DNA of 213 nucleotides. It comes from a phage. Position 1 is the first letter of the stretch. Each line of letters starts with the position of its first letter. Positions 2 to 199 of this stretch are shown in pieces. The notes under the pieces are model-generated. The model saw nothing but the letters and a program-made list of their open reading frames with translations, made no database searches and had not been told where the DNA came from. The stretch lies in the sequence record BH153107.1; one strand, written 5' to 3'. The translations under genes were made by a program, and so were the position numbers.

Positions 2-199
2 ACTTTCCGTAATGCTGAGTCCGCAGAGGAATTTGTTAAACGCTATCCACAACATAACAAGTTCCTGTATGGTGTGCTTCACAAGGGCTTTAAAGTTCTA
101 ACTGTTAATGTTATCCCTAAAGTGTATTTTTGGTCGAAAACTCATGATTATGAGGGTGCGTCAATCATGATTGATGTAAGCGAGCGCAAATACTTTTAA
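2..199 (+). CDS. Hypothetical protein, C-terminal fragment (65 codons plus TAA stop); the 5' end and start codon lie upstream of the window
   Basis: Seen in sequence: frame 2 is open from position 2 to the TAA at 197-199, while every other frame on both strands is interrupted, apart from short shadow ORFs. Under a random model with this base composition, stops occur at roughly 6-7% of codons, so a 65-codon stop-free run has a probability of roughly 1% per frame (back-of-envelope estimate). No in-frame ATG with a Shine-Dalgarno sequence occurs early in the window, so the gene must start upstream. Arg codons are CGT/CGC only (3 of 3) and Lys is mostly AAA (5 of 7). Translation: TFRNAESAEEFVKRYPQHNKFLYGVLHKGFKVLTVNVIPKVYFWSKTHDYEGASIMIDVSERKYF. 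I recognise no diagnostic motif, so the product is left as hypothetical. Confidence 0.65.
   Translation, partial: TFRNAESAEEFVKRYPQHNKFLYGVLHKGFKVLTVNVIPKVYFWSKTHDYEGASIMIDVSERKYF
161..174. repeat. Perfect 14-bp palindrome (inverted repeat) TCAATCATGATTGA embedded in the 3' end of the CDS; possible protein-binding site
   Basis: Seen in sequence: positions 161-174 read TCAATCATGATTGA, which is identical to its own reverse complement (half-sites TCAATCA / TGATTGA, dyad axis between 167 and 168). The flanking bases 160 (G) and 175 (T) do not extend it. That the palindrome exists is certain; the confidence value reflects uncertainty about whether it is functional or a chance occurrence in coding sequence. 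Confidence 0.5.

Follow-up and report, generated by a model that had tools for sequence, protein, structure and literature searches.

The window, that is, the whole stretch of 213 nucleotides that was analysed, carries one open reading frame on the plus strand (frame 2, positions 2–196, 65 codons), which is closed by a TAA codon at positions 197–199 and translates into the 65-residue peptide TFRNAESAEEFVKRYPQHNKFLYGVLHKGFKVLTVNVIPKVYFWSKTHDYEGASIMIDVSERKYF. All other frames were checked and no second open frame was found in the window; it has no match in Rfam, and a repeat scan found no notable repeats in it. The reading frame and its stop agree with an earlier note on this DNA made from the letters alone, and so do the aromatic residues (6 Phe, 5 Tyr and 1 Trp in 65 residues) and the arginine codons (CGT, CGC, CGC) counted there. 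Megablast analysis against 50,697 phage records displays 34 matches, every one of them to Krischvirus, with phage RB49 as the best match (96.7% nucleotide identity over 213 nt). Krischvirus, within the Straboviridae, groups the T4-type phages that resemble RB49 and infect E. coli and Shigella; RB49 itself is lytic. A more sensitive blastn search lists 57 related records with identities down to 76%. On the other hand, megablast against 5,426 complete E. coli genomes and against 72,556 plasmids (PLSDB) found no match in either collection.

The match to RB49 falls within the coding sequence RB49p059 (ORF059c, 188 aa, NP_891630.1), and the window is read in the same frame as this gene and its orthologues. 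Once seven changed bases are set aside, 206 of 206 aligned bases are identical between the window and RB49 in a global alignment. Positions 2–196 of the plus strand correspond to residues 26–89 of ORF059c, which belong to its N-terminal small beta-barrel domain; this assignment is based on the RB49 alignment, on PHROG 8944 and on dN/dS. Because dN/dS among Krischvirus orthologues is 0.16–0.20 over the window stretch, the frame is truly coding, and the earlier view of a protein-coding, phage-derived sequence is borne out by this value and by the RB49 match. The gene as such is already known: it has been part of the RB49 annotation since 2003, and the wider family was described in 2025.

Other proposals of the earlier note fare less well against this background. 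The suggested AT-rich island in a GC-richer host was rejected: the GC content of the window (38.5%) is that of the phage (39–40% in six related loci), and the E. coli genomes and plasmids searched gave no match. The exclusive use of CGT and CGC for arginine had been read as a further sign of foreign origin. These two codons make up 58% of the arginine codons at the RB49 locus, therefore three out of three (P ~0.2) is unremarkable. The richness in aromatic residues shrinks likewise: with 25 neighbouring RB49 proteins (3,787 residues) as the reference, 18.5% in the window peptide compares with 11.7% (P = 0.07 for at least 12 of 65), and P rises to 0.21 if a short frameshifted patch, which supplies one Phe and the only Trp, is left aside. 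A native C-terminus of a novel and unclassifiable accessory protein, encoded in AT-rich, horizontally acquired DNA of a bacterial genome, deserves hardly any credence. The stop codon is physically there, and neither Pfam nor NCBIfam provides a hit. However, the sequence is near-identical to a lytic phage genome and is matched by none of the E. coli genomes and plasmids searched, all relatives read through the position of the stop, and the links to GoF and Frd.2 are provided by PHROG, hhalign and Foldseek.

The differences from RB49 are confined to positions 115–197 of the plus strand. At positions 115–117 the window has CCC in place of the GGG that is found in RB49, JSE, Phi1, TB34, kvi, GEC-3S and a natural variant from the Logan contigs (L009), which changes Met63-Gly64 to Ile-Pro. 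At positions 127–131 a run of five T stands against three T in RB49 (two additional bases, global alignment) and starts a short out-of-frame patch; at positions 137–140 a run of four A stands against three A in RB49 (one additional base in the alignments) and restores the frame. Together, these two runs convert Leu68-Val69-Glu70, located in strand beta3, to Phe-Trp-Ser-Lys. Finally, the T run at positions 194–197 has four bases, as compared to three in all relatives aligned (feature at 194–199). This extra T changes TAC TTT AAA CGC (Y F K R) to TAC TTT TAA, therefore giving rise to the stop TAA at 197–199, and the frame ends after Phe89. The native continuation AAA CGC ATC ACT AAA (KRITK, residues 90–94 of RB49; strand beta5 plus the beginning of the linker helix) is still present at positions 198–212 of the plus strand, now in the next frame, and frame +3 of the window accordingly ends with …NTFKRITK.

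All 57 related records align over 209 nt of the 213-nt window (208 nt if the match begins at base 2), and the four extra bases are present in none of them (blastn). In the relatives, translation continues past the position of the window stop (…ERKYF-KRITKKQFEEMK…) and gives a product of about 188 aa. Six orthologues (RB49, JSE, Phi1, GEC-3S, kvi and TB34) are 186–188 aa long and keep the stretch …ERKYFKRITKKQFEEMK…, and in their genomes the open reading frame continues for about 99 codons beyond the window stop. More broadly, the frame of the orthologue group runs for about 185–192 aa through the invariant linker ERKYFKRITKKQFEEMK; it is intact in 21 of 21 protein clusters drawn from 5.8 billion sequences, and interrupted in the window. 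The same 21 clusters are invariant at G64, L68, V69 and ERKYFKRITKKQF, with Gly64 located in the predicted turn between beta2 and beta3. Exact-match scans were run for two strings specific to the window, one covering the CCC, T5 and A4 sites and the other the extra T. Both gave no hits in JGI metagenome contigs; the extra-T string gave none in IMG/VR, and the CCC/T5/A4 string none in GTDB genomes.

Because the relatives read through and the changes are private to this copy, the window represents residues 26–89 of the N-terminal domain and does not include a C-terminus. The earlier note had taken the stretch for the tail of a gene, and this has to be given up: the stop derives from an extra T shared by none of the 57 relatives, and the gene tail is no property of the gene, whether it goes back to an error or to a mutation. 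We are highly confident that the window as a whole is explained as an internal segment of ORF059c of Escherichia phage RB49, encoding part of a barrel of the GoF/Frd.2 family, with a non-native stop and private changes.

As to the origin of these changes, we consider it probable, on balance, that they reflect a sequence error, for example miscalled homopolymers or a stretch of low quality in a read. Three of the events alter the length of a homopolymer, relatives vary in the window stretch by substitutions only, and invariant residues as well as strand beta5 are lost through the changes. Other features of the data speak against an error. The insertions of two bases and one base, ten bases apart, restore the frame, which under random error would be a one-in-three coincidence and is the expectation under selection on a real mutant, and GGG to CCC is atypical as a homopolymer miscall. 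A quasipalindrome or template-switch origin of the latter change was considered and rejected, as the repeat scan displayed no inverted repeat that is perfected by it.

A genuine mutant or variant derived from RB49 is a possible, if rather unlikely, source of the same sequence. In such a phage the additional T would cut ORF059c after Phe89 and leave the N-terminal domain alone, and the C-terminal domain may restart at Met100. The frame-restoring pair of insertions fits this possibility, as do two natural parallels: the paralogue RB49p060 is a 90-aa protein that consists of this domain only, and an independent variant (P0151, 97 aa) does much the same as the truncation discussed here. However, both P0151 and p060 retain strand beta5 (residues 89–92), which the window truncation deletes, and the changes Gly64 to Pro and LVE to FWSK hit invariant positions. 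All five mutational events are confined to 83 nt, the other 130 nt of the window being unaffected, natural relatives have no indels here at a divergence of up to 24%, and the variant strings are missing from the three public collections that were scanned.

The variant P0151 deserves a description of its own. Its sequence ends with …KRITKKAV*, owing to a run of six A in place of five A in ACTAAAAAGCAG, located 16 nt downstream of the extra T of the window. An 89-aa open reading frame for the C-terminal domain starts from Met100, 5 nt after the end of P0151. Eleven Logan contigs, all of one SRR series, carry this split variant (L009, 3001–3568, contig of SRR22356019; also L010–L016); of eight places that were read, seven agree at every base of the gene and one has a single-base difference. 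Since a natural frameshift divides ORF059c 16 nt downstream, a truncation at this site of the gene is tolerated.

If the extra T is real, it could also be bypassed by +1 ribosomal frameshifting, such that the full-length protein is made at a lower level; we regard this as very improbable. The candidate stretch is TACTTTTAAACG, in which TAC TTT TAA ACG provides a slippery run of four U ahead of a stop in the 0 frame, with the native KRITK in the +1 frame. Here, the tRNA-Phe in the P site would move from its UUU codon onto the overlapping UUU within UUU-UAA-A, beside a slowly decoded stop. The frameshift site CUU-UGA of prfB formally resembles UUU-UAA. Against slippage, a Shine-Dalgarno-like stimulator is lacking upstream (GAGCGCAAATAC), the UUU-UAA configuration occurs in none of the relatives, the corresponding RB49 stretch displays no signal of RNA structure (z = −0.7), and slippage would offer no explanation for the four remaining sites of change. 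A more general proposal, again conditional on a real extra T and in our view improbable, is that the runs in the linker (T3 at YF|K and A5 at TKK) are recurrent frameshift points at which the barrel is uncoupled from the C-terminal domain. The uncoupling would be either heritable, as in the Logan variant with the additional A, or brought about by low-level +1 slippage at UUU-UAA. If true, the phage would possess a switch by which its GoF-like protein is made either with two domains or with the barrel only.

ORF059c is embedded in a cluster of related genes. The gene order is gene 49, the 90-aa paralogue, ORF059c, a frd.2-like gene and nrdD in six out of six genomes (RB49, JSE, TB34, kvi, GEC-3S and Phi1). 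The 90-aa paralogue p060 is a single copy of the ORF059c barrel domain. The protein p058 (annotated "frd.2", 392 aa) has three tandem copies of the domain as well as a C-terminal domain that resembles the one in ORF059c (BLASTP E-values 1e-8, 1e-7 and 2e-4), and its third copy matches T4 Frd.2 (4e-6). The window matches ORF059c and not p058 or p060, which differ from it in length and number of domains. A possible further copy is found in p057, with a weak hit to phrog_3710. In sum, p060 to p057 form a tandem array of five or six copies of the GoF/Frd.2 type in 2.6 kb (L001 5640–8277, RB49 38,433–39,070 region; RB49p060, p059, p058 and p057), which is kept in six of six Krischvirus genomes.

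A TTGACA-17-TAAAAT sequence lies directly upstream of the p060-ORF059c pair. It is a consensus match only, at a place where the GEC-3S annotation lists a promoter. Sigma70-like promoter matches are present in each intergenic gap of the array, namely upstream of p060 (11/12, L001 5580–5608), of p058 (10/12, L001 6490–6518) and of p057 (12/12, L001 7725–7752), and two of these are annotated in GEC-3S. GEC-3S also carries a putative HNH homing endonuclease gene between dam and nrdC (L006 539–1294), which is missing at the dam-nrdC position in RB49, JSE, Phi1 and kvi.

Between the two domains of ORF059c lies a 63-nt linker stretch coding SERKYFKRITKKQFEEMKPVKK (L001 6178–6240, ORF059c nt 252–314), which overlaps positions 181–213 of the window. 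Every base of it is invariant in six genomes, whereas 24% of the sites in the gene vary. No signal of RNA structure was found in the linker (fold z = −0.7). The C-terminal domain has two allelic forms, and these reassort with the types of the N-terminal domain (e.g. in Phi1); a block GAGCG-AAATACTTTAAACGCATC is shared, with 23 of 24 nt, between the ORF059c linker and the end of domain 1 of p058. Judged from these sequence patterns, the data suggest that the linker may serve as a recombination or gene-conversion junction.

A structural model was computed for the intact RB49 protein and not for the altered sequence of the window. AlphaFold2 with 21 close orthologues yielded an unusable model (pLDDT 42.6); a confident one was obtained from a 43-sequence alignment covering four subfamilies, with pLDDT 87–96 for residues 20–100. 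According to this model, ORF059c (~188 aa) is composed of a small beta-barrel at the N-terminus (about 100 residues), the invariant linker and a helical C-terminal domain, the latter predicted at low confidence. The predicted order of elements is beta1 (24–27), helices 30–39 and 41–51, beta2 (55–60), beta3 (66–70), beta4 (77–81), a short helix, beta5 (89–92) and a helix at 94–99. The beta-strand content that had been presumed from the alternating residue pattern of the peptide is thereby recovered at the pLDDT given above, with KVLTVNV as beta2, VY… as beta3 and SIMID as beta4.

Foldseek analysis of the model against BFVD displays 44 hits at E <= 1e-3, all of them proteins of T4-like phages and one of them GoF (4.7e-5). 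The search against PDB provided nothing significant (best E = 0.31), and no Hfq or Sm chain is among the top 50 hits. The best of these non-significant PDB hits (E 0.3–0.6) are SH3-like small barrels, namely the Spt5 KOW domain, eL14, the Mind bomb repeat and FeoA. This agrees with the published placement of GoF, to which FeoA-type SH3 domains are nearest (Kim et al., 2025, PMC12152347). A sequence search of PDB gave one chance-level hit (E = 0.27), an unrelated lipid-transfer protein.

The earlier note regarded the peptide as unassignable. It belongs to RB49 ORF059c, it matches PHROG 8944 ("goF mRNA metabolism modulator") with E = 5e-27 for the 65-aa peptide of the window and E = 1e-101 for the full RB49 protein, and it is a distant relative of GoF and Frd.2. 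Weaker PHROG hits of ORF059c are phrog_13003, 5347 and 622, the last at 2e-5. It is phrog_622 that contains T4 GoF (5e-38) and Frd.2 (4e-46), both of which match phrog_8944 weakly. The label of PHROG 622 reads "unknown function" despite these members. A comparable clash is seen in RefSeq, where RB49p059 and RB49p058 are named "goF mRNA metabolism modulator" (L001 5927–7728) and T4 goF itself is a "hypothetical protein" (L003 5842–6267).

Direct comparison supports the relation: BLASTP aligns residues 5–51 of T4 GoF with residues 19–65 of ORF059c (E = 4e-6), and hhalign of the GoF and ORF059c family alignments covers the whole domain (109 columns) with 68% probability and E = 5e-5. An exhaustive HMMER search with the ORF059 orthologue profile failed to recover GoF at E <= 1e-3; it matched its own family, the paralogue p058 (2.8e-6) and a protein designated P0024. 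As this search stops at the family and p058, the link to GoF is to be regarded as real but distant. The barrel is distantly but reproducibly homologous to the N-terminal domains of T4 GoF and Frd.2, of the family with an "LSm-like fold" described in the literature as GoF/Frd.2/MotB.1 (Kim et al., 2025, PMC12152347).

P0024 was dismissed as unrelated. It is a repetitive protein of 451 aa, and its seven "hits" are due to a chance YHGAS…ERNYF repeat. The protein contains seven units of about 58 aa (…YHGASLSSSSHERNYFIH…) and reaches E = 6e-15 against the ORF059 profile via this short repeated motif, which makes it a false positive. Pfam and NCBIfam provide no hit above threshold for ORF059c; Complex1_LYR (E = 0.005) and RecT on p058 (E = 0.0014) are below the gathering score and were taken as chance. 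In particular, PF03197 (FRD2), which is carried by true Frd.2 homologues, has no hit at E <= 1 in ORF059c, the window peptide or RB49p058. The earlier note had named a full-length match to a characterised family as the result that would remove any novelty. This result was obtained in part, with a match to a family that is described rather than functionally characterised.

What is available on function comes from the genetics of T4 GoF. With GoF(D25Y) or GoF(G84R), T4 becomes able to grow on certain hosts mutated in rho (Kim et al., 2025, PMC12152347). [quoted passage not shown] In the window, the CGC codon at positions 41–43 of the plus strand encodes Arg39, which is aligned with Asp25 of T4 GoF, the D25Y site (BLASTP, hhalign), and the AAA codon at positions 188–190 of the same strand encodes Lys87, which is aligned with Gly84, the G84R site (hhalign). 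The Krischvirus protein is therefore natively basic at both suppressor sites. By analogy to GoF genetics, ORF059c would most likely be an early protein that acts post-transcriptionally, possibly by binding to RNA or to a partner in RNA processing and thereby altering mRNA stability.

As a discovery, the window is of little importance, being a segment of a known gene in a described family with probably a sequence error at the stop. The value lies in the correction: a private insertion of one base was mistaken for the end of a gene, and the "unassignable" peptide is the conserved domain of a GoF-like, putatively early protein. Beyond this, two observations made on the side may be useful for work on the function of the GoF family, and neither hinges on the window being real: the suppressor positions are natively basic in the Krischvirus protein, and both of the known frameshift variants fall within the 63-nt linker that is invariant at the nucleotide level.

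In comparison with known systems, the closest is RB49 ORF059c with its orthologues. It ends at residue 188, in contrast to the window, which ends after Phe89 and has IP for MG and FWSK for LVE. T4 GoF (comC-alpha, NP_049624.1, 141 aa) has the same architecture as ORF059c, with an N-terminal barrel of about 90 residues, a linker and a variable C-terminal domain, and both share the motif F-x-x-G/N-x-x-Y-x-F … F-K-V/I-L … E-x-x-Y/F-F. Both families are found in T4-type phages only, and their genes lie behind putative sigma70-like early promoters. However, the two proteins are only ~23–26% identical, and the loci differ, with ORF059c at 49-nrdD and T4 goF at 39-motB. Sm, LSm and Hfq proteins proper provide no Pfam LSM hit and no significant sequence or structure match for ORF059c. 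Like Hfq and Sm/LSm proteins, FeoA, the Spt5 KOW domain and eL14, ORF059c is a five-stranded small barrel; unlike Hfq and Sm/LSm, it is predicted to carry two helices between beta1 and beta2.
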